This document shows positions 2,190 through 25,239 of a stretch of DNA of 64,000 nt, piece after piece. This DNA is from an uncultured Candidatus Saccharibacteria bacterium (GTDB lineage: Bacteria > Patescibacteriota > Minisyncoccia > Portnoybacterales > UBA2143), in NCBI GenBank assembly GCA_964556655.1, contig CAZKWY010000001.1, positions 7,528-71,527 on the forward strand, read 5' to 3'. The notes under the pieces are model-generated. The model had not been told where the DNA came from. It made no database searches and worked only from the letters and a program-made list of their open reading frames with translations. Position numbers and translations under genes: made by a program. The first letter of the stretch is position 1; every line of letters begins with the position of its first letter.

Positions 2190-2696
2190 TTATCTTTTTA
2201 TTAAGTACTTCTCTTTCCCTTCGCCTAAATCAATAAAATCATCGGCAATCTCTTTTAGCTTTCCAGAAGCGCTTTTAGCAAAAGCAATTACTTCGGCTTG
2301 CTGGCCTTTGGCCTTAAGATATTCCAAAAGAGGGATGAAATCGCCATCTCCAGTCACCAGCACTAAAACATCAAGAAGGGGAGATAATTTAACCGCGTCG
2401 ATAGTAATACCGACATCCCAATCTGCTTTTTTGAGACCGCCATAAAAGATTTGCAAATCCTTAACCCTTGTTTCAATGCCCGCTTTTTCCAATGCATTAA
2501 AAAAGGTCTTTTCTTCGCCAGTTTCTGTTCTGATAACATAAGCAACTGCTCTTATCAGCTTGCGTCCTGCTACAGCTGTTTTAAGGACTTCCTTGAAATT
2601 CACCCGCGCTCCGAAGAGATTTTTGGCTGAATGGTACATATTCTGGGCGTCTATCAAAACGCCAACGCGCTGTTCTTTGTGTTTAATAATGCTCAT
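2190..2696 (-). CDS. NYN/LabA-like PIN-fold domain protein
   Basis: 168 aa. The motifs GVLIDAQNMYHS and VLVTGDGDFIPLLEYLKAKG are typical of NYN/LabA (DUF88) predicted RNases. Confidence 0.6.
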   Translation of the reverse strand: MSIIKHKEQRVGVLIDAQNMYHSAKNLFGARVNFKEVLKTAVAGRKLIRAVAYVIRTETGEEKTFFNALEKAGIETRVKDLQIFYGGLKKADWDVGITIDAVKLSPLLDVLVLVTGDGDFIPLLEYLKAKGQQAEVIAFAKSASGKLKEIADDFIDLGEGKEKYLIKR

Positions 2697-2717: not shown

Positions 2718-2984
2718 TTAGCGCTTTAAACCAAGTTTCTTGATCACTTTTTTGTAGCGCTTTTCGTTTTCTTTTTTAAGATAATCCAAAAGTTTTCGTC
2801 TTTTAGCGACCATCTTTAAAAGGCCACGCCTAGAATGATTGTCTTTAGGATGCTTCTTAAGGTGTTTAGCCAATTCATCAATTTGCTCGGTTAAAATAGC
2901 TACCTGCACGTCGGAAGATCCAGTGTCTGTATCGTGAGCCTTGAAATCCTCGATAATTTTTGTTTTTTTGTCTTGCTTGATCAT
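2718..2984 (-). CDS. rpsO: 30S ribosomal protein S15
   Basis: 88 aa. [51 protein letters not shown] matches the S15 consensus. It lies upstream of pnp, the conserved rpsO-pnp arrangement. Confidence 0.9.
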
Positions 2985-3221
2985 AACTAATTATACTTTA
3001 TCAAAAAAAAATAAATAAGGCAAGTTTTTGCCTTAATTATTCTTCTGGTGCAGGATACTTGAATTAGTGCGAACCCACCGCGCCTGCGATGTGGCAGAAC
3101 CCCCGCCAAAAATACAGGCGACGGAGCCGCGCCGCTGACAATTTCAAGTTTTTCTTTGACGGCAAATAATTTTGAGTTTGCGAAGCAAACACTAAAAATA
3201 TGATAACAAATTTTCAAAAAT

Positions 3222-3268
3222 TAAACAAAGAAAAAGCCCGCCAGAGGTCCTTTGGACATGGCGGGCTG
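3222..3268 (-). terminator. Rho-independent terminator for the GC-rich orphan ORF
   Basis: The hairpin GCCCGCCA-(15 nt)-UGGCGGGC is followed by a U-run on the minus strand. Confidence 0.5.
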
Positions 3269-3283
3269 GTGCTGGTGATCGGG

Positions 3284-3625
3284 TCACTTCTTGAACTCAC
3301 TCGGATAGATGACAGTCGTCTCCCAGTCGTCCGGCAGCAGCCTAAGCTCCACAGCCCAACTGCCGATACCGTCGAGAAGAAACTGCCACTTCGCCTCAGT
3401 CAGTTCGTCGATCTCGAAACACACGCAGGAGACCGGCTTCTCGTGGTTTTCCCAAACGCCCTTGTGAGCGAGGTAGCCACGATGCATTACGGTCGTCATG
3501 CCAGCGTTTCGGAGAATCGACGGGTTTCGGTAGCAATACCCCGCTACTTCACCTAAGATGTACCTCCGATCGTACGGCTCTCCGTAGTTTTTAACGATTT
3601 TGTCAAGAACAACGATCTTCGTCAT
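3284..3625 (-). CDS. Hypothetical protein encoded on a GC-rich, atypical insert
   Basis: 113 aa from the ATG at 3625, with a strong AAAGGAG Shine-Dalgarno 7 nt upstream. Local GC is clearly higher than in flanking genes. I recognise no domain. Confidence 0.4.
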   Translation of the reverse strand: MTKIVVLDKIVKNYGEPYDRRYILGEVAGYCYRNPSILRNAGMTTVMHRGYLAHKGVWENHEKPVSCVCFEIDELTEAKWQFLLDGIGSWAVELRLLPDDWETTVIYPSEFKK

Positions 3626-4050
3626 ATTAGCTCTCCTTTGTTTGTTTGGCGGAATTGCCAAACTTGCATCGGAGCGCTTACCCGCTTGCCTCCATTAATG
3701 GAAGGGATGAAGGGTAGAGAACCATACTTCCTCAAAGCCCTGATTATCCGTACAGACTATGAGGTGCCGGGACATACCGGGGTTTCTGGTCGCTTTGCGA
3801 TGATCGTGCGGCTGTGGACGCATGTATCGCTCAGCCAAGCTCTGAAGTGCATACTAGCATATCTATGTATTCCTGTCAAGTGCAACAGAAAAAAGCCCGT
3901 ATTTTAAGGCTTTTTCTAGGAGTTCGTATTGGATTAAAAATTTTTCTTCCTCTCAATCAAAATCGCAAATTCAGTTTTGAGCCGAAAATACACTGCGCGC
4001 GAGCCGCCGAGCACCGCAAGGCGGCGAGCTCTGACTTGCAATTTCCTTTC

Positions 4051-4125
4051 TGGTGCCCCCGCTAGGATTCGAACCTAGAACCAATTGCTTAAGAGGCAAC
4101 TGCTCTGCCATTGAGCTACAGGGGC
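4051..4125 (-). tRNA. tRNA-Lys (anticodon CTT), CCA encoded
   Basis: Manual cloverleaf: acceptor GCCCCTG/CGGGGGC, D-arm GCTC..GAGC, anticodon loop CTCTTAA, T-arm CTAGG-TTCGAAT-CCTAG, discriminator A, then CCA. Confidence 0.8.
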
Positions 4126-4133
4126 GAACAAGG

Positions 4134-4207
4134 CACGCCCGGAAGGACTCGAACCTCCAACCTTATGGTCCGAAGCCATACGCTCTATCCAATTGAGCTA
4201 CGGGCGC
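4134..4207 (-). tRNA. tRNA-Arg (anticodon TCG)
   Basis: Manual cloverleaf: acceptor GCGCCCG/CGGGCGT with a G-U wobble at pair 1-72, D-arm GCTC-AATTGGATA-GAGC, anticodon stem TATGG/CCATA with loop CTTCGGA, T-loop TTCGAGT. Confidence 0.75.
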
Positions 4208-4249: not shown

Positions 4250-4471
4250 TTATTGGCAGTCCTCAGGACAGCTTTCTCTTGTCTCTGGACAAGGACAGCC
4301 AAATGCTTGGCAAACCATTTCTTGACAAACGCCATCGCCACAAAGATCCTGGCATATTTCTGTTTTATTTTCGCCGCCTCCTTTTCTTTCGTTGTTTTCT
4401 CTGGCCAATAAAAAAGCGGCGAAAATAAGAGAAATTACAACTAATAATAAAATTATCTTTTTGTTAAACAT
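4250..4471 (-). CDS. Small secreted or membrane-anchored cysteine-rich protein
   Basis: 73 aa from the ATG at 4471 (the track's longer ORF begins at TTG). An N-terminal hydrophobic segment MFNKKIILLLVVISLIFAAFLLA is followed by 10 Cys in about 35 aa: CQDLCGDGVCQEMVCQAFGCPCPETRESCPEDC. Confidence 0.4.
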   Translation of the reverse strand: MFNKKIILLLVVISLIFAAFLLARENNERKGGGENKTEICQDLCGDGVCQEMVCQAFGCPCPETRESCPEDCQ

Positions 4472-4559
4472 AAAAATTATCTCTTTATTATTGATCAAAA
4501 AGTTGCTCTAAGCGCTTAACCATGATATGATTTTACCGTAAGATCAGCCAATTATCAAT

Positions 4560-5999
4560 ATGGAAAAATTACCTAGTATCATTAAGAATATCCTTGAGAA
4601 ACTGGAGAAAGAAGGCTTTGAAGCTTATGCTGTGGGAGGATGCGTTCGCGACTTGCTCCTCGACAGAGAACCGAAAGACTGGGACATTGCTACTAGCGCT
4701 CTTCCTGAAGAAATTCAAAAAATATTCCCCGAAAGCTTTTACAAAAACAAGTTTGGCACGGTTACCGTTAAAACAAAAAGCTTGGTTGAAACGCTTAAAG
4801 AAGTTGAAATAACCACTTTTAGAACAGAAGAGGGGTATTCTGATAAAAGGCATCCCGACAGAATAGAATTCGCTAAAACGCTTAAAAAAGACCTTTCTAG
4901 AAGAGACTTTACCATCAACGCCCTGGCCTTAAATAAGGAAGAAAAGCTCATCGATTTTTATTGCGGCCAAAAAGATATAGAAAAAAAGTTTCTTCGGGCA
5001 GTCGGGACGCCCAACAAACGATTTGAGGAAGACGCTCTGCGCATGCTAAGAGCTGTTAGGCTGGCCGTAGAGCTCAATTTTAAAATAGAAGAAAAGACTT
5101 TGTCAGCTATAGAAAAAAACGCCGGCTGGCTTCAGGCTATCGCTAAAGAAAGAGTTAGAGACGAATTCTCCAAAATGATTATGACTGACCGCCCTCACCA
5201 AGGGATAGAGCTTTTAAGAAAAAGCGGATTGTTGAAATATATTATTCCAGAATTAGAAAAAGGTATTGGGATAAGCCAAAACCGCCACCATATCTACACC
5301 ATCTATCAACATGCTGTCCTTTCTTTGAAATTTGCCGCCCAGAGGAAATATAGCATGGAAGTTCGCCTTGCCGCTCTTTTGCATGATATTGCCAAACCGC
5401 AGACTAAAAGAGGGGAGGGGCCTGATGCTACTTTCTACAATCACGATAACTTGGGAGCGCGCTTTGCCGTAAAAATCCTTAGTCGATTGAAGTTTCCTAA
5501 AAAAACCATAGAGAAAACAGCCCTTTTAGTACGCTATCATATGTTTGTTTACGGAGTAGAAGAAGTCAGCGAAGCTGGCGTAAGAAGGCTTTTGCGCCGC
5601 GTCGGGCCGGAAAATGTTCAAGATTTAATTGATTTAAGGGTAGCCGACAGGCTGGGTAGCGGATGCCCCAAAGCTGTCCCCTATAAATTACGCCATTTGC
5701 GATATATTATTGAGAAAGTCTCCAAAGATCCTATTTCTCCTAAAATGATCAAAATTAATGGCAGCGACTTAATAGAGCGCCTCGGTCTAGGGCCTGGACC
5801 AAGAATCGGCCTGCTTCTAGAGGCGCTGCTTTCAGAAATTTTAGAAAATCCTAAAATTAATATCAAAAAACACCTTCTTGAGAGAGCCGAAGAGCTAAAC
5901 AAGTTATCTGAAAAGGAATTAGAGAAAAAAACAGAAAGAGTAAAAGAAAGAAAAGAAGAAATAGATCTCCAAACAAAGCAAAAACACTTCGTCAAATAG
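4560..5999 (+). CDS. cca: CCA-adding tRNA nucleotidyltransferase with HD domain
   Basis: 479 aa. The N-terminal pol-beta NTase motif GGCVRDLLLDREPKDWDIAT, the downstream RRDFTINA motif and the HD motif LLHDIAKP are all present, followed by a K/E-rich C-terminal tail. Confidence 0.85.
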   Translation: MEKLPSIIKNILEKLEKEGFEAYAVGGCVRDLLLDREPKDWDIATSALPEEIQKIFPESFYKNKFGTVTVKTKSLVETLKEVEITTFRTEEGYSDKRHPDRIEFAKTLKKDLSRRDFTINALALNKEEKLIDFYCGQKDIEKKFLRAVGTPNKRFEEDALRMLRAVRLAVELNFKIEEKTLSAIEKNAGWLQAIAKERVRDEFSKMIMTDRPHQGIELLRKSGLLKYIIPELEKGIGISQNRHHIYTIYQHAVLSLKFAAQRKYSMEVRLAALLHDIAKPQTKRGEGPDATFYNHDNLGARFAVKILSRLKFPKKTIEKTALLVRYHMFVYGVEEVSEAGVRRLLRRVGPENVQDLIDLRVADRLGSGCPKAVPYKLRHLRYIIEKVSKDPISPKMIKINGSDLIERLGLGPGPRIGLLLEALLSEILENPKINIKKHLLERAEELNKLSEKELEKKTERVKERKEEIDLQTKQKHFVK

Positions 6000-6000
6000 C

Positions 6001-6028
6001 AAGGACTGTCATTCTAGGACAGTCCTTG
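6001..6028. repeat. Palindromic repeat element, copy A (single unit AAGGACTGTCATTCTAGGACAGTCCTTG)
   Basis: A perfect inverted repeat GGACTGTC/GACAGTCC lies between the cca stop and tRNA-Pro. It belongs to the same family as the copies at 8143, 23578 and 23956. Confidence 0.7.
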
Positions 6029-6033
6029 AAAAT

Positions 6034-6104
6034 CGGGATGTAGTATAACGGAAGTACGCATCCTTCGGGTGGATGTAGTCTGGGTTCGATTCCCAGCATC
6101 CCGA
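6034..6104 (+). tRNA. tRNA-Pro (anticodon CGG)
   Basis: Manual cloverleaf: acceptor CGGGATG/CATCCCG, anticodon stem CATCC/GGATG with loop TTCGGGT, T-arm CTGGG-TTCGATT-CCCAG, discriminator A. CCA is not encoded and the variable loop is short (4 nt). Confidence 0.7.
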
Positions 6105-6158
6105 CTAAGATAGTATTTTTTAAAAAAGGTCGAAAAATAAAATAAGGAGAAAAACAAT

Positions 6159-6440
6159 ATGCTTTCGAAGTTGCCCATTGACCTAAAAAAGGTTGATAAA
6201 AACAACATCGACAAAGAAATTCTAAGACTTGGCGTCATCGCAGAACTTGATGCGGTAAGTCTTTACGAACAATTGGCCGCTATGACCGAAAACGAAAAGA
6301 TTAAGAAGATTATGTTTGACGTTGCCAAAGAAGAAAAAACTCATGTAGGGGAGTTTCAAGCACTTCTTTTGCAACTTGACCAGGAGCAAACAAAAGAGCT
6401 AGAAAAAGGCAAAGAAGAAGTAGAAGAAATAACAGAATAA
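6159..6440 (+). CDS. Ferritin-like (rubrerythrin/EncFtn-like) small protein
   Basis: 93 aa. ELDAVSLYEQLAA and the EExxH motif AKEEKTHVGEF are characteristic of small ferritin-like di-iron proteins. Confidence 0.45.
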   Translation: MLSKLPIDLKKVDKNNIDKEILRLGVIAELDAVSLYEQLAAMTENEKIKKIMFDVAKEEKTHVGEFQALLLQLDQEQTKELEKGKEEVEEITE

Positions 6441-6515
6441 GCAGAGAAATGAAAAACTGCCGCAGAAAAAAAGATCTGCGGCAGTTAATGCGCTGGATAA
6501 TTAAGTTCTTAAAAA

Positions 6516-21698: not shown

Positions 21699-23579
21699 AT
21701 GAACGTTTTATCTTCTCTCAACAGTAAACAAAAACAAGCAGTCACGGCTCTCAAAGGGCCTGTTTTGGTTATTGCCGGACCCGGAAGCGGGAAAACCAGA
21801 TGTCTAACCCATCGCATTGCCTATCTCGTTACTAAAAAGAAAATCCCCGCTTTTAATATTTTGGCCGTCACCTTTACTAACAAAGCAGCCCAGGAAATGA
21901 AGGAAAGATTAGCTAAAATTCTTCCACCTTCTTTTCAGAGAATGCCTGATATCGGAACTTTTCACGCTATTTGCCTGCGGATTCTTAGGCAGGATATTGA
22001 CAAACTCCCCCAAACCTCTTTAGGCAGAAATTTTGTCATTTACGACGAAGCTGACCGATTATCCTTAATCAAAAAAATTATTAACGACTTAGCTGTTAAC
22101 ACCGACCAATTCAAGCCTTCTACTCTGCAAAACACTATTTCTAGAGCAAAAGACGAATTAATTGACCCCGGATCATACCAGGAACAAGCTAAAGAATATT
22201 TTCCTAAAACAGTCGCCCAAGTTTATCAAGCCTATCAAGAGGCTCTAGCTCAAGCCAATGCCCTTGATTTTGACGATCTTATTATGCTAACCGTTAAGCT
22301 TTTCCAAACACGGCCCGATGTCTTAAAAAAATATCAAAACAGATGGCGCTATTTTTTGGTAGATGAAGCCCACGATACCAATTTAAGCCAATACAAACTG
22401 ACCAACCTTTTGGCGCGAAAGCGCCAAAACTTGTGGCTGATTGCTGATCCAGACCAGTCTATCTATATGTGGCGAGGCGCCGACTTTAGAAATATTCTTA
22501 ATTTTGAAAAAGATTATCCTAAGGCTCGCGTTATCCTTTTAGAAGAGAACTACCGCTCTACTAAAAATATCTTGGAGGCTGGCCATTGCGTTATTAATAA
22601 AAACACCCAACGCCGAGAAAAAAATCTTTGGACAAAAAATGGACAAGGCGCGCCCATTAATTTAATTCTAGCGTCAAACGAAAGAGCGGAAGGCGATTTT
22701 ATTGTCAACGAAATTGAGGGATTAATTAACGAAAAAGGATATACTCTAAAAGACTTTACCGTTCTTTACCGCACCAATGCCCAATCCAGAGCCATTGAAG
22801 AAGCCTTCCTGCAAGCCGGCTTCCCCTATAGAATTATTGGCACAGTCAAATTCTACGAAAGAAAAGAAATTAAAGATATTTTATGCTACCTCCGACTAAC
22901 AGCCAACCCTCAAGACCTCGTCAGTCTGCAAAGAGTAGTCAATCTCCCCCCGCGCCGCCTTGCTAGATACAGCAAAGATCCGTCTTTGGTCTTAAGAAAA
23001 AACGACAAAGCCCTAGAGAGTTTCAATCAGATAATGAACTCTTTTAGAATTTTCAGCCGGCAAAATTCCTTAACTGCTCTTATTAAAAAAATAATTGAAG
23101 AAATCGGCTATGAGAAATACATTAAATCCTTTGCCTCTGACGCAGAAGAAGGGGAGAGAAGATGGGAGAATGTAGAAGAAATTTTTACCGTGGCTAGCCG
23201 CTATGACAAAGAAGATCCAGGCACAGGATTAGAAAAATTCCTTGAAGAAATCAGTCTTTTGACAGGCCAAGACGAGATTGAAACCAACAGCGAAGTTATT
23301 AACTTAATGACTCTTCACTGCGCTAAAGGATTAGAATTTCCTGTTGTCTTTATCGCCGGATGCGAGGAAAGCATCCTGCCTCATTCCAGAAGCCAGCTTC
23401 ACCGGGACCAGATGGAAGAAGAAAGACGCCTATGCTATGTCGGCATTACCCGGGCTAAAGAAATTAGCTATCTTACTTTCACTAATCAACGCCGCCTGTG
23501 GGGACAAACAATGGCTAATTATCCTTCCCGCTTCCTTTCCGACTTGCCCGAACACCTCATCGCCTTCCGCCAATTCTAG
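21699..23579 (+). CDS. UvrD/PcrA/Rep-family ATP-dependent DNA helicase
   Basis: 626 aa. Motif I AGPGSGKT, Ia TFTNKAAQEM, II FLVDEAHDTN, III DPDQSIYMWRGAD, V LEENYRST, and VI TLHCAKGLEFPVVFI are all present. Confidence 0.85.
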   Translation: MNVLSSLNSKQKQAVTALKGPVLVIAGPGSGKTRCLTHRIAYLVTKKKIPAFNILAVTFTNKAAQEMKERLAKILPPSFQRMPDIGTFHAICLRILRQDIDKLPQTSLGRNFVIYDEADRLSLIKKIINDLAVNTDQFKPSTLQNTISRAKDELIDPGSYQEQAKEYFPKTVAQVYQAYQEALAQANALDFDDLIMLTVKLFQTRPDVLKKYQNRWRYFLVDEAHDTNLSQYKLTNLLARKRQNLWLIADPDQSIYMWRGADFRNILNFEKDYPKARVILLEENYRSTKNILEAGHCVINKNTQRREKNLWTKNGQGAPINLILASNERAEGDFIVNEIEGLINEKGYTLKDFTVLYRTNAQSRAIEEAFLQAGFPYRIIGTVKFYERKEIKDILCYLRLTANPQDLVSLQRVVNLPPRRLARYSKDPSLVLRKNDKALESFNQIMNSFRIFSRQNSLTALIKKIIEEIGYEKYIKSFASDAEEGERRWENVEEIFTVASRYDKEDPGTGLEKFLEEISLLTGQDEIETNSEVINLMTLHCAKGLEFPVVFIAGCEESILPHSRSQLHRDQMEEERRLCYVGITRAKEISYLTFTNQRRLWGQTMANYPSRFLSDLPEHLIAFRQF

Positions 23580-23647
23580 GACTGTAATTCTAGGACAGTC
23601 CTTTTTTGACAGTCCTTCAAGGACTGTAATTCTAGGACAGTCCTTGG
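23578..23647. repeat. Palindromic repeat element, copy C (about 1.7 units, inverted relative to copy B)
   Basis: AGGACTGTAATTCTAGGACAGTCCTTTTTTGACAGTCCTTCA plus a partial second unit. It begins at the helicase stop codon and ends 3 nt before the rsmA ATG. Confidence 0.8.
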
Positions 23648-23649
23648 CT

Positions 23650-24519
23650 ATGAACCTTACTTCGCCCAAAATATTAAGGGAAACATTTAAAAAACACGAC
23701 TTTAAACCCCAAAAAAGACTGGGGCAAAATTTTTTAATTGACCAAAATATTGTTAATAAAATTGTCAAAATAGCTCAAATAAGTAAGAAAGACACTATTT
23801 TAGAAATCGGTCCCGGCACAGGCGCTATTACTAAAGCACTAGCGCAAAAGAGCAAAAAAGTAATTGCCGTAGAAAAAGACCCTCAACTATCAAAGATCCT
23901 AAAAGAAAACCTTTCTTCTTTTAAAAACACATCCATTATTACCTCCGACATCCGCAGGACTGTAATTCTAGGACAGTCCTTTTTTGACAGTCCTTCAAGG
24001 ACTGTAATTCTAGGACAGTCCTTGAAGGACTGTCCTTGGAAGGTGGTGGCTAATTTGCCTTATTATCTTAGCCAGCATGTTATTAGAAAGCTTTTAGAAT
24101 TAGAAAATCAGCCGGAAAAAATAGTTCTTCTAGTTCAAAAAGAACTTGCCCAAAGGATTTGCGCCAAGCCCCCGCGAATGAACATTCTAGCTGTTTCAGT
24201 CCAGTTTTACAGCCAGCCCGAAATTAAAGGATATGTTTCCAAAACTTGTTTTTGGCCTCAGCCAAAAGTAGATTCTGCCATTATTGAAATAAATCCCCTT
24301 GAAAAAACACAAGAGATATCCTCGGAGAGATTTTTTAAAACAGTTAAGGCCGGATTTTTTGCCCCCCGCAAACAGCTAGCCAATAATTTAACCAGTCAAC
24401 TAAAAAAAGGAAGGGAAGGAATAATAAAAGCGATCAAAAAGACGGGGATAGAAGAAAAGGCCAGAGCAGAAAACTTAACCATTAAAGAATGGATTAATTT
24501 AAGCCGTTTATTAACATAA
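23650..24519 (+). CDS. rsmA: 16S rRNA (adenine1518/1519-N6)-dimethyltransferase RsmA/KsgA, carrying an in-frame 28-codon repeat-element insertion
   Basis: The SAM motif ILEIGPGTGAITKAL and motif IV VVANLPYYLS are present. The insert [30 protein letters not shown] (nt 23956-24039) is encoded by the palindromic element and sits just before motif IV. The track's longer ORF (from 23344) overlaps the helicase in another frame. Confidence 0.8.
   Translation: MNLTSPKILRETFKKHDFKPQKRLGQNFLIDQNIVNKIVKIAQISKKDTILEIGPGTGAITKALAQKSKKVIAVEKDPQLSKILKENLSSFKNTSIITSDIRRTVILGQSFFDSPSRTVILGQSLKDCPWKVVANLPYYLSQHVIRKLLELENQPEKIVLLVQKELAQRICAKPPRMNILAVSVQFYSQPEIKGYVSKTCFWPQPKVDSAIIEINPLEKTQEISSERFFKTVKAGFFAPRKQLANNLTSQLKKGREGIIKAIKKTGIEEKARAENLTIKEWINLSRLLT
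23956..24039. repeat. Palindromic repeat element, copy D (84 bp), inside the rsmA coding sequence
   Basis: It is near-identical to copy C plus a GAAGGACTGTCCTTGG extension. The length is a multiple of 3 and the reading frame is preserved across it. Confidence 0.8.
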
Positions 24520-24545
24520 AAAAACCGACCGCTAGGCGGTCGGTG
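24518..24545 (-). terminator. Terminator for the minus-strand lipoprotein gene (hairpin shared with the rsmA 3' end)
   Basis: CCGACCGC-TAG-GCGGTCGG with a U-run on the minus strand (an A-run on plus). Confidence 0.5.
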
Positions 24546-24554
24546 GGTGAAGGG

Positions 24555-25064
24555 TTATCTTAATTTTCGGTAGCTTCTGATGTGCCAGAAGCCTTCCTCC
24601 CCTCTTCTGACTCGGATACGCCTACTGGCTGTCCCGAGCAACTCAGAACCGCTATAGACTCTGACCATAATGAGTGTCTCCTCTCTTCTTCGCGCTCCCC
24701 ATCCCCTAGGAACATCTTTCACAAGTATCCCGCCGGGATTAAGGGAATGCCAAGCCGCGTCATCCTGGATGTAAACTAGAACTTTGCGGCTAAGGCCATT
24801 AAAAATTTTGAACCGCCAGTTGAAAAATCCAGGCGGCTCGGACGGATCTACGTAGGCTTTCTCCTCCCCGCTTTTGGAAAGATGATCCACGACCGACCCG
24901 ACTCCAGCGCCAGTTAACCCGCCTACGAGAGCGCCTCTTTCATCTCCCGTATGAAGGCCAATACCAGCGCCCAGAAGGGCGCCTGTCGCTGCCCACTGAT
25001 GAGTGCATCCAAAAGAAAGCGCCATGACTATTGCCATTGCCATTGTTGCCCTAATTCTTTTCAT
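24555..25064 (-). CDS. Glycine-zipper lipoprotein
   Basis: 169 aa. The signal peptide has a lipobox (MAMAIVMALSFGC). The glycine-zipper TM-like motif is GALLGAGIGLHTGDERGALVGGLTGAGVGSVV. GC content is visibly higher than in neighbouring genes. Confidence 0.5.
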   Translation of the reverse strand: MKRIRATMAMAIVMALSFGCTHQWAATGALLGAGIGLHTGDERGALVGGLTGAGVGSVVDHLSKSGEEKAYVDPSEPPGFFNWRFKIFNGLSRKVLVYIQDDAAWHSLNPGGILVKDVPRGWGARRREETLIMVRVYSGSELLGTASRRIRVRRGEEGFWHIRSYRKLR

Positions 25065-25239
25065 TTTCTCCTCCTTTGTAAAGAACTAAAATATTTTCTA
25101 AATTATACCACTTAAAATTATATATTGTCAATAGAAGAAGAACGAAAGGAGAAAGCTAATTTCACCGAATTAAAAAGGCTATTAGTTGTGGATAGGATTT
25201 TGTTGTTTTTGGCTACACTGTGGTATAATAAGCTAACAA

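Follow-up and report, generated by a model that had tools for sequence, protein, structure and literature searches.

Several described systems come close to the element reported here. In staphylococci, SCCmec and the ccr-less pseudo-SCC elements, associated with the large serine recombinases (LSRs) CcrAB, insert at the extreme 3' end of a gene (rlmH) that is kept active; a copy of the integration site at the element end leads to tandem accumulation, and recombinase-less derivatives with the same repeats are common. Islands of tyrosine integrases, whose classic targets are tRNA 3' ends, are bounded by direct repeats, deviate in composition, form tandem arrays and include integrase-less copies. 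Integron cassettes are small single-gene units with a common recombination end, arrayed beside the gene of a site-specific recombinase. Finally, translational riboswitches, like other leaders in which the Shine-Dalgarno sequence is sequestered, place a multi-helix aptamer-like domain in the 5' untranslated region (5' UTR), followed by a helix that contains the Shine-Dalgarno sequence, with covarying helices and invariant junctions. Here we describe a cassette of about 1 kb that shares features with all of these, located at the end of a tRNA-Lys gene in a 64-kb stretch of DNA (the window; contig CAZKWY010000001.1) from an uncultured Candidatus Saccharibacteria bacterium.

The sequence between positions 3052 and 4047 is probably a non-autonomous, recombinase-less mini integrative cassette of an LSR-mobilised family, whose cargo gene would be under the control of a leader RNA; as the element in the window is without its recombinase, we file it as a non-autonomous derivative. 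The likeness to SCCmec and pseudo-SCC extends to the gene-end site, the kept function of the target, the tandem copies and the recombinase-less forms. The targets here are the CCA ends of several tRNAs and not rlmH; the cassettes are about 1 kb long with a single gene, the recombinase open reading frame (ORF) crosses the core into the antisense strand of a tRNA, and the hosts are Patescibacteria. Tyrosine-integrase islands share the tRNA 3'-end site, whereas here the recombinase is a serine recombinase, the segment of identity is just 8-9 nt, and the element bears a mimic of a tRNA end rather than a true copy of a tRNA 3' half. The arrays of small single-gene units beside a recombinase gene (in L023-L026) recall integrons, but there is no IntI tyrosine recombinase, attC hairpin or attI/Pc platform, and each cassette may have its own promoter; the resemblance is functional only, in effect and not in mechanism. 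The new findings are precise insertion boundaries, a connection to LSRs with remnants at both ends, the context of cassette arrays, and the leader RNA.

Composition and boundaries of the interval

On the minus strand of the window (about 40% GC) the gene order is tRNA-Arg(tcg), tRNA-Lys(ctt), a GC-rich interval, rpsO and an NYN-domain gene (Table 1); homologues of the NYN protein bear the names Candidatus Portnoybacteria or Patescibacteria. The original prediction had described a rise in GC content across about 3040-4050, between rpsO on the left and tRNA-Lys abutting the right edge, and had taken the interval for a horizontally acquired fragment whose integrase had been lost. The positions of both neighbours agree with this description, as does the composition: GC content is 49.4% over 3050-4050, and the segment 3233-3880, at 52.6%, is the highest of all 650-nt windows across the 64 kb, which served as the baseline (mean 40.3%, standard deviation 3.8%). 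Codon usage also deviates, the GC content at third codon positions (GC3) of the 113-aa ORF in the interval being 0.69 versus 0.382±0.033 in 34 long host ORFs (z = 9.2).

Two direct copies of a 9-nt repeat, TTCTGGTGC, delimit the interval, a 1,005-bp insertion made up of the 996 nt between the repeats and one repeat copy (equal to the repeat spacing). All close copies of the element stop matching the window exactly at the core 3043-3051. Relatives conserve the order CCA-adding enzyme, tRNA-Arg(tcg), tRNA-Lys(ctt), rpsO, NYN, polynucleotide phosphorylase, and three of them (L046, L047 and L048) are without the interval: their gap between tRNA-Lys and rpsO, an unoccupied attachment site (attB), is 140 nt in L046 and L047 and 190 nt in L048, and contains the rpsO upstream hairpin only. 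Removing one repeat and the 996 nt in silico leaves tRNA-Lys, a hairpin with a T-run, and rpsO, which is the arrangement of these relatives. An exact-match look-up of rpsO returned only L009, from the same genome, and so no empty site. If the interval was inserted as proposed, the empty-site junction would read ..GGGGGCACCAGAAGAATAATTAAGGC.. / GGTTCGAATCCTAGCGGGGGCACCAGAAGAATAATTAAGGCAAAAACTTGCC and the junction of the circular form (attP) ..AGTATCCTGCACCAGAAAGGAAATTGC.. / CTAATTCAAGTATCCTGCACCAGAAAGGAAATTGCAAGTCAGAGC.

The site between tRNA-Lys and rpsO appears to be a hotspot of variable content. In one relative (L045:3847-4098) the gap is occupied by a gene for an 83-aa acyl-carrier-protein-like protein (PP-binding), with no cassette. 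In L048 a 249-aa ORF (3203-3952) with a weak N-terminal helix-turn-helix match lies between tRNA-Arg(tcg) and tRNA-Lys(ctt); it starts 23 nt past the CCA of tRNA-Arg, has 35.7% GC versus 39.8% for the locus, and may be another insertion at a tRNA end.

Copies of the cassette and tandem arrays

L014, L021-L027 and L038 contain copies of window positions 3043-3948/3962 that are 91-93% identical in nucleotide sequence and stand between unrelated flanks. The L022 copy directly adjoins the GCACCA of tRNA-Leu(gag) and terminates ahead of nusA in ..CTGCACCA, followed by AAAC; its core is GCACCAAA at both ends. The host nusA at this tRNA-Leu locus is just 66-69% identical to the nusA of the window, which indicates that the cassette is far younger than the divergence of the hosts.

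In L023 a second, unrelated cassette stands in tandem between tRNA-Leu and the main cassette, with the head (..GGGAAAAGAAAATTTTTAATC) and the tail (a GC hairpin plus TTCGAACTATTTTCAGAATAGAGCACCA) of the latter; the same tail terminates two different cassettes in L021-L026. The second cassette (L023:1476-2635, also in L024-L026) carries an ORF of 342 aa whose N-terminus is hydrophobic and which matches nothing in Pfam. As L022 is without it, three occupancy states are seen at one tRNA-Leu/nusA locus.

Co-directional tRNAs for Asp, Arg (two loci) and Asn precede more distant homologues of the cargo unit by 100-170 nt. An 87%-identical unit stands in L010 (2775-3788) and L012 (102-1115) beside a transposase with HTH_38 and rve domains, which we take to be IS30-like; there the gene caller stretches the cargo ORF through the leader to 149 aa, probably an annotation artefact. 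In one subfamily (L006:4409-4933, L041 and L043) a second gene (DUF7689, E = 1e-4) is conserved after the cargo unit, and in another (L004 and L037) an unrelated 145-aa gene follows. Neither gene is present in the window, and these and other neighbours of the diverged homologues gave no functional clue.

Recombinase sequences at both ends

Beside its copy of the cassette, L014 encodes a 502-aa protein with the domains Resolvase, Recombinase and Zn_ribbon_recom, an LSR with homologues in L027 (89% identity) and L024-L026 (74%); the full gene is present in the sister loci L014, L024-L027, L049 and L050. The family is very large: over 7,800 clusters reach E < 1e-40, many of them at 72-83% identity, and every cluster with a source name comes from a Patescibacteria-type lineage. 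On LSRs in Patescibacteria, a literature search returned nothing. The clusters typically cover 97% of the query, so that the extreme C-terminus varies, and the C-termini of the LSRs (486-643 aa) vary because the ORF continues across the core into the tRNA: in L049 and L050, which have the same a, c, b architecture, it runs into the tRNA-Arg gene on the opposite strand. In L049, where an LSR adjoins the gene of the CCA-adding enzyme, a tyrosine recombinase (5126-6124; Phage_integrase with a SAM-like N-terminal domain) stands immediately upstream of rpsO.

Both ends of the interval in the window are related to these recombinase loci. On the tRNA side, arm a' matches the LSR C-terminus (tblastn E = 1.7e-8, 66% identity over 32 aa) and runs antisense into tRNA-Lys, and next to it stands the cassette head c. 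At the far end, the tail arm b overlaps a fragment of 14 LSR codons; its tblastn match (71% over 14 aa, E = 0.86) is weak alone, and at the nucleotide level window positions 3137-3168 are 97% identical to L014:1568-1599, within the LSR gene. The tail pattern TTCGNACTANTTNNAGNATANNGCACCA has one match in the window, with none expected; folded as RNA, tail b gave no consistent tRNA-like minihelix.

In L014, L027 and L038, arms b and a' form one uninterrupted sequence. When the two arms of the window are joined (3928-4056 and 3052-3141), they align at 90-91% over about 218 nt to contiguous sequence in these loci, and are 100% identical over about 70 nt centred on the core. The counterpart sites (L014:1703-1921, L027:1535-1752 and L038:407-622) lie immediately upstream of the LSR gene. 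On these alignments the relationship is that expected between attL/attR and attP, and arms a' and b would correspond to the P and P' arms of attP, respectively. By comparison, the two weakly similar motifs that had been proposed as remnants of attachment sites, CTGACAATTTCAAG (about 3133-3146) and CTGACTTGCAATTTCC (about 4031-4046), belong to recombinase-gene fragments and are not crossover sites. The broader claim of horizontal acquisition at tRNA-Lys with loss of the integrase stands, given the absence of the interval from related genomes, its extreme composition, the near-identical copies at other loci and in other hosts and the LSR remnants at both ends.

As reconstructed from the sister loci, the general architecture of the family is tRNA·GCACCA / rc(a) ← LSR – c – a' / TGGTGC·rc(b) – cargo – b·GCACCA / flank, where rc denotes the reverse complement, and the form in the window is tRNA-Lys·GCACCA / rc(a') – rc(c) – cargo – b·GCACCA / rpsO. 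Upstream of the LSR genes of L049 and L050 there follow a b-type tail, GCACCA, an inverted 101-nt copy of the gene's 3' end, and head c. The 101-nt inverted repeats are 100% identical (L049:65-165 and 1587-1687; L050:4866-4966 and 6370-6470), one of each pair being the 3' coding end of the gene. Inverted copies of tail b, also 100% identical (L050:3688-3788 and 4772-4872), flank a 282-aa cargo gene with immunoglobulin-like domains (Kre9_KNH, Gmad2), and inverted copies of b at 98-99% identity flank the main cassette in L014, L027 and L038. Such inverted copies suggest that inversion of the cargo occurs as well as integration.

The cargo gene and its protein

The 113-aa ORF had been described as an orphan with a strong Shine-Dalgarno sequence, a GC-rich terminator hairpin and no recognisable domain. 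All but the first of these descriptions proved accurate. The Shine-Dalgarno sequence, AAGGAG, lies 8 nt upstream of the ATG; the terminator hairpin is maintained by compensatory changes among diverged homologues; and neither the ORF nor the ORFs antisense to it have matches in Pfam, PHROGs or PADLOC. The ORF is no orphan: its homologues, at 57-95% identity, form 46 clusters, none of them annotated, and where a source is named it is Paceibacteria, Saccharibacteria or the 'Patescibacteria group'. Substitutions by codon position (0.16/0.13/0.38) are concentrated at the third position, from which we conclude that the ORF is translated and under purifying selection. A promoter and the 229-nt leader, both missed by the original prediction, precede the gene; the TTGACA and -10 boxes are conserved across the alignments of homologues. 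A small hairpin upstream of the promoter, kept in the close copies, is a putative insulator of the cargo unit.

The gene is rare, being found in only 6 of 185,579 species representatives, and an exhaustive profile search of 1.84 billion representatives returned just five clusters at 50% identity, with no remote homologues beyond those. One carrier of the cargo unit, L019 (CAZHTB010000024.1), is labelled 'uncultured Gammaproteobacteria'; its leader and ORF are typical of the Patescibacteria copies, and either mis-binning of the contig or a real transfer may explain the label. An affinity to phage or toxin-antitoxin systems, which had been suggested for testing, found no support: there are no matches in IMG/VR, INPHARED, PLSDB, PHROGs or PADLOC.

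The AlphaFold2 model of the protein, a confident one (predicted local distance difference test score, pLDDT, 92.7), has a beta-alpha-beta-beta-alpha-beta topology with a long beta-hairpin. A profile search of PDB sequences gave no match, and the best Foldseek matches, which are not significant, are ferredoxin-fold proteins of the PII, CutA and uS10 types, with which the model shares its topology, the long beta2-beta3 hairpin and a size of about 110 aa. The protein is thus modelled as at best PII/CutA-like in topology.

The leader RNA

In every locus, alignments of the upstream region show conservation that spans from the promoter to the start codon. The structure of the leader was drawn by hand from folds of single sequences and then tested on alignments. 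Three helices, the long hairpin P2, the variable hairpin P3 and P4, meet in a junction closed by P1, and P5 and P6 follow; the 13-nt loop of P4, UGUnnGGAUAAUCA, is invariant, and P5 has the form CCC..hairpin..AAGCGGG. Tested on 15 leaders aligned with plain MAFFT, the structure has 92.3% of its cells paired, versus 38-44% in slid controls, and 21 compensatory pairs, versus 10.7±2.2 in shuffles (0/500). On the alignment to a covariance model built from this one, which leans towards the modelled structure, 47 of 61 pairs are compensatory (92.3% of cells paired versus 36-45% in slid controls). The terminal hairpin P6 (helices 9 and 10), which pairs the Shine-Dalgarno sequence with an upstream CUCC, has compensatory changes in 15 of its 16 pairs; at one pair, 11 sequences have A-U and 12 have G-C.

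The linkage of leader and ORF is strict. The covariance model detects all ORF-bearing loci, including nine outside the seed (E between 1e-5 and 1e-34), has one match in the window and none in ORF-less loci, and every homologous ORF is immediately preceded by the leader, in the position of a 5' UTR with an expression platform. Against Rfam 15 (4,227 families) the leader strand gave no match even at E ≤ 10 over the 281 nt searched, a search of the region at E ≤ 10 named no family for it either, and in six diverged loci nothing except tRNAs reached the gathering score; a literature search likewise returned nothing on this RNA. On the evidence of covariation, the leader is a previously undescribed and well-supported structured RNA.

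Some earlier candidates for its structure and class were set aside. RNAalifold on a raw MAFFT alignment of all 25 leaders gave only 15 pairs, with the 5' half misaligned, and was replaced. A likeness by eye to the THI-box of thiamine pyrophosphate riboswitches (GGCUGAG.., ..GGAUAAU..) was dropped, as there is no Rfam match and the covarying helices differ, and so were T-box, retron and type III antitoxin ideas (no matches, no reverse transcriptase, no repeats).

We read the leader as a cis-acting element of translational control. Since its last helix pairs the Shine-Dalgarno sequence, translational control by a leader that responds to a ligand or a protein is the most likely mode, and the leader appears to gate translation of the cargo. 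It shares with translational riboswitches the order of aptamer-like domain and Shine-Dalgarno helix, and differs from them in belonging to no Rfam 15 family and in being tied to a single gene family; a metabolite riboswitch is a plausible identity for it, if not quite a probable one. The data show its structure, the covariation, the pairing of the Shine-Dalgarno sequence and the strict tie to the ORF; switching, and with it any signal sensed, is inferred.

The leader could instead be the binding site of its own protein product, which would repress its own translation as in the leaders of ribosomal-protein genes. The sequestered Shine-Dalgarno sequence fits this idea, as does the fact that the leader never precedes another gene, and the ferredoxin-like fold is also found in RNA-binding proteins such as uS10 and Cas6. 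At 229 nt, with six helices and many invariant unpaired nucleotides, the RNA is nevertheless large as protein operators go, the structural matches are generic, and no RNA-binding motif was identified in the protein; we regard autogenous control as possible and somewhat unlikely. Less likely still is that the RNA acts primarily as a non-coding RNA (a ribozyme, a protein partner or a mobility RNA) and is merely co-transcribed with the ORF. Its location on a mobile element and the very high conservation of loops and junctions (GCGACC, the P4 loop, AAGCGGG) would suit such a role, but the RNA ends just before the start codon in a covarying helix that occludes the Shine-Dalgarno sequence, leader and ORF stay together even where no recombinase or cassette arms are detectable, and there is no match to a ribozyme in Rfam.

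Integration or inversion

The inverted repeats of the sister loci raise another explanation, namely an invertible (shufflon-like or phase-variable) system in which the recombinase flips the DNA between inverted cores and the window holds one frozen orientation. Arm b copies are inverted around the cargo in L014, L027, L038 and L050 at 98-100% identity, perfect 101-nt inverted repeats surround the LSR gene in L049 and L050, and there are 29-nt inverted copies of head c. As a full account it is nonetheless improbable: the cores are direct, not inverted, in the window, L022 and L023; the same cassette follows different tRNAs in different hosts; and relatives have empty sites. Inversion may well coexist with integration.

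That the interval is the remnant of a decayed prophage or of a tyrosine-integrase tRNA island, with only incidental similarity to LSRs, is very improbable: a tRNA 3' end is the usual target of tyrosine integrases, and the relative L049 has a tyrosine recombinase next to rpsO, yet phage or plasmid matches are absent, both arms are homologous to LSR-element sequence and together make up the site found beside LSR genes, and LSR genes directly abut tRNAs in L049 and L050. Native, vertically inherited DNA, with a composition due to high expression or structural constraint, is scarcely credible, since RNA structure could account for part of the GC excess of the leader but the GC3 deviation, the absence from syntenic relatives, and the identity of the copies set against that of the host genes already refute it.

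Features and neighbouring genes

Table 1. Features of the tRNA-Lys/rpsO interval and the adjoining genes (positions in the 64-kb window)
Feature	Positions	Strand	Evidence or remark
NYN-domain gene	2190-2696	-	
rpsO	2718-2984	-	
Core repeat copy 1, TTCTGGTGC; attL/attR-type junction of cassette tail with rpsO-side host DNA	3043-3051		
Tail arm b (putative), GC-rich hairpins, tRNA-3'-end-like terminus GGTTCGCACTAATTCAAGTATCCTGCACCA	3046-3141	-	
LSR fragment, 14 codons, corresponding to LSR codons 29-42 (..FAVKEKLEIV..)	3131-3172	-	tblastn
Intrinsic terminator of cargo gene, long GC-rich hairpin and U-run	3228-3268	-	Read from sequence
Cargo gene, 113 aa; ferredoxin-like beta-alpha-beta-beta-alpha-beta fold with long beta-hairpin (predicted)	3284-3625	-	
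Structured 5' leader RNA, 229 nt	3623-3851	-	Covariation, covariance model
P6 hairpin, pairing the Shine-Dalgarno sequence (AAGGAG, 3638-3633) with upstream CUCC	3629-3678	-	Inverted repeat, covariation
Promoter, sigma-70-type, TTGACA-17 nt-TAGTAT, extended -10 TG	3851-3879	-	10/12 consensus positions
Small hairpin AAAGCC..GGCTTT upstream of promoter	3892-3914		Read from sequence; kept in close copies
Cassette head c, GGAAGAAAAATTTTTAATCCAAT	3928-3950	-	Same head before LSR gene and other cargo genes in sister loci
Arm a', LSR C-terminal coding-end remnant (..QNRKFSFEPKIHCARAAEHRKAASSDLQFPFWC), running antisense into tRNA-Lys	3958-4053	+	
Core repeat copy 2, TTCTGGTGC	4048-4056		Reverse complement of tRNA-Lys 3' end GCACCA plus GAA
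tRNA-Lys(ctt), integration target, intact including encoded CCA	4051-4125	-	ARAGORN and Rfam, 73.3 bits
tRNA-Arg(tcg)	4132-4207	-	

Just upstream of tRNA-Arg, on the same strand, stands an 82-aa ORF (4250-4498, minus strand) with an N-terminal hydrophobic segment, a Cys-rich C-terminal half and no Pfam match; a stretch of 27% GC (the 4400-4560 region) and the divergent gene of the CCA-adding enzyme come next. Elsewhere in the window, the runner-up among GC-rich 650-nt stretches (about 24350-25100, about 49% GC) covers the 3' end of a 391-aa ORF (23344-24519, plus strand) and a 169-aa ORF (24555-25064, minus strand).

Discussion

We propose that the cassette inserted at the last bases of tRNA-Lys(ctt), which would have left the tRNA intact and duplicated the 9-nt core. 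The tRNA-side arm (a' with head c) would be an inverted-repeat copy of the LSR 3' end and the region upstream of the LSR, and the far arm b would end as a mimic of a tRNA 3' end (..GGTTCG..GCACCA). The LSR unit may have been inverted and then deleted between two copies of head c that had thereby become direct, giving the form seen in the window; such a loss seems the most probable route. The cargo would travel as a self-contained expression unit of strong promoter, 229-nt leader, 113-aa protein and terminator. In the window the arms are intact and the sequence flanking the core is identical to that of sites next to LSR genes; the search for an LSR covered the 64 kb of the window, and as no intact LSR was found there, mobilisation in trans is assumed.

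Several observations weigh against this account. The window holds only remnants of a recombinase, and no intact LSR lies inside the element. Short LSR fragments (codons 30-40, 46-52 and 449-457) recur beside b in diverged elements, and a single rearrangement history that would account for all the LSR fragments beside b could not be reconstructed. In the flanking genes, identity to the relatives that have empty sites is only about 70-76%, and neither an empty-site nor a circle-junction sequence was recovered from the same population. An adjacent co-directional tRNA is present at only about 7 of 25 distinct loci. The tRNA-side arm is about 100 nt long (a') in the window and about 30 nt in the L022 and L023 copies, from which it follows that the copies need not all use the same recombinase. 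For the leader, the lean of the covariance-model alignment belongs on the same side.

At a larger scale, the locus may belong to a serine-recombinase system of gene capture in Patescibacteria, a proposal that we put forward tentatively and hold to be doubtful as a whole. Single-gene cassettes with mimics of tRNA acceptor ends would insert at the CCA ends of tRNAs, regenerate the target and build up integron-like arrays; the LSR gene would be one such unit, enclosed by perfect 101-nt inverted repeats and running over the core into the tRNA, and the cargo of the present cassette, a widespread one, would comprise a new class of riboswitch and a new PII-like signalling protein.

The mobile elements and regulatory RNAs of Patescibacteria (also known as the candidate phyla radiation, CPR) are poorly charted, and the locus provides an exactly delimited example of gene acquisition in reduced genomes, a 1-kb cassette at the CCA end of a tRNA, with behind it a recombinase family that has thousands of members in the phylum. 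The attP, attB, attL and attR candidates are defined at the level of sequence and may serve as integrase tools with specificity for tRNA ends. The leader, with its unusually strong covariation, no counterpart in Rfam and its tie to a small protein family, is a candidate for ligand screening.

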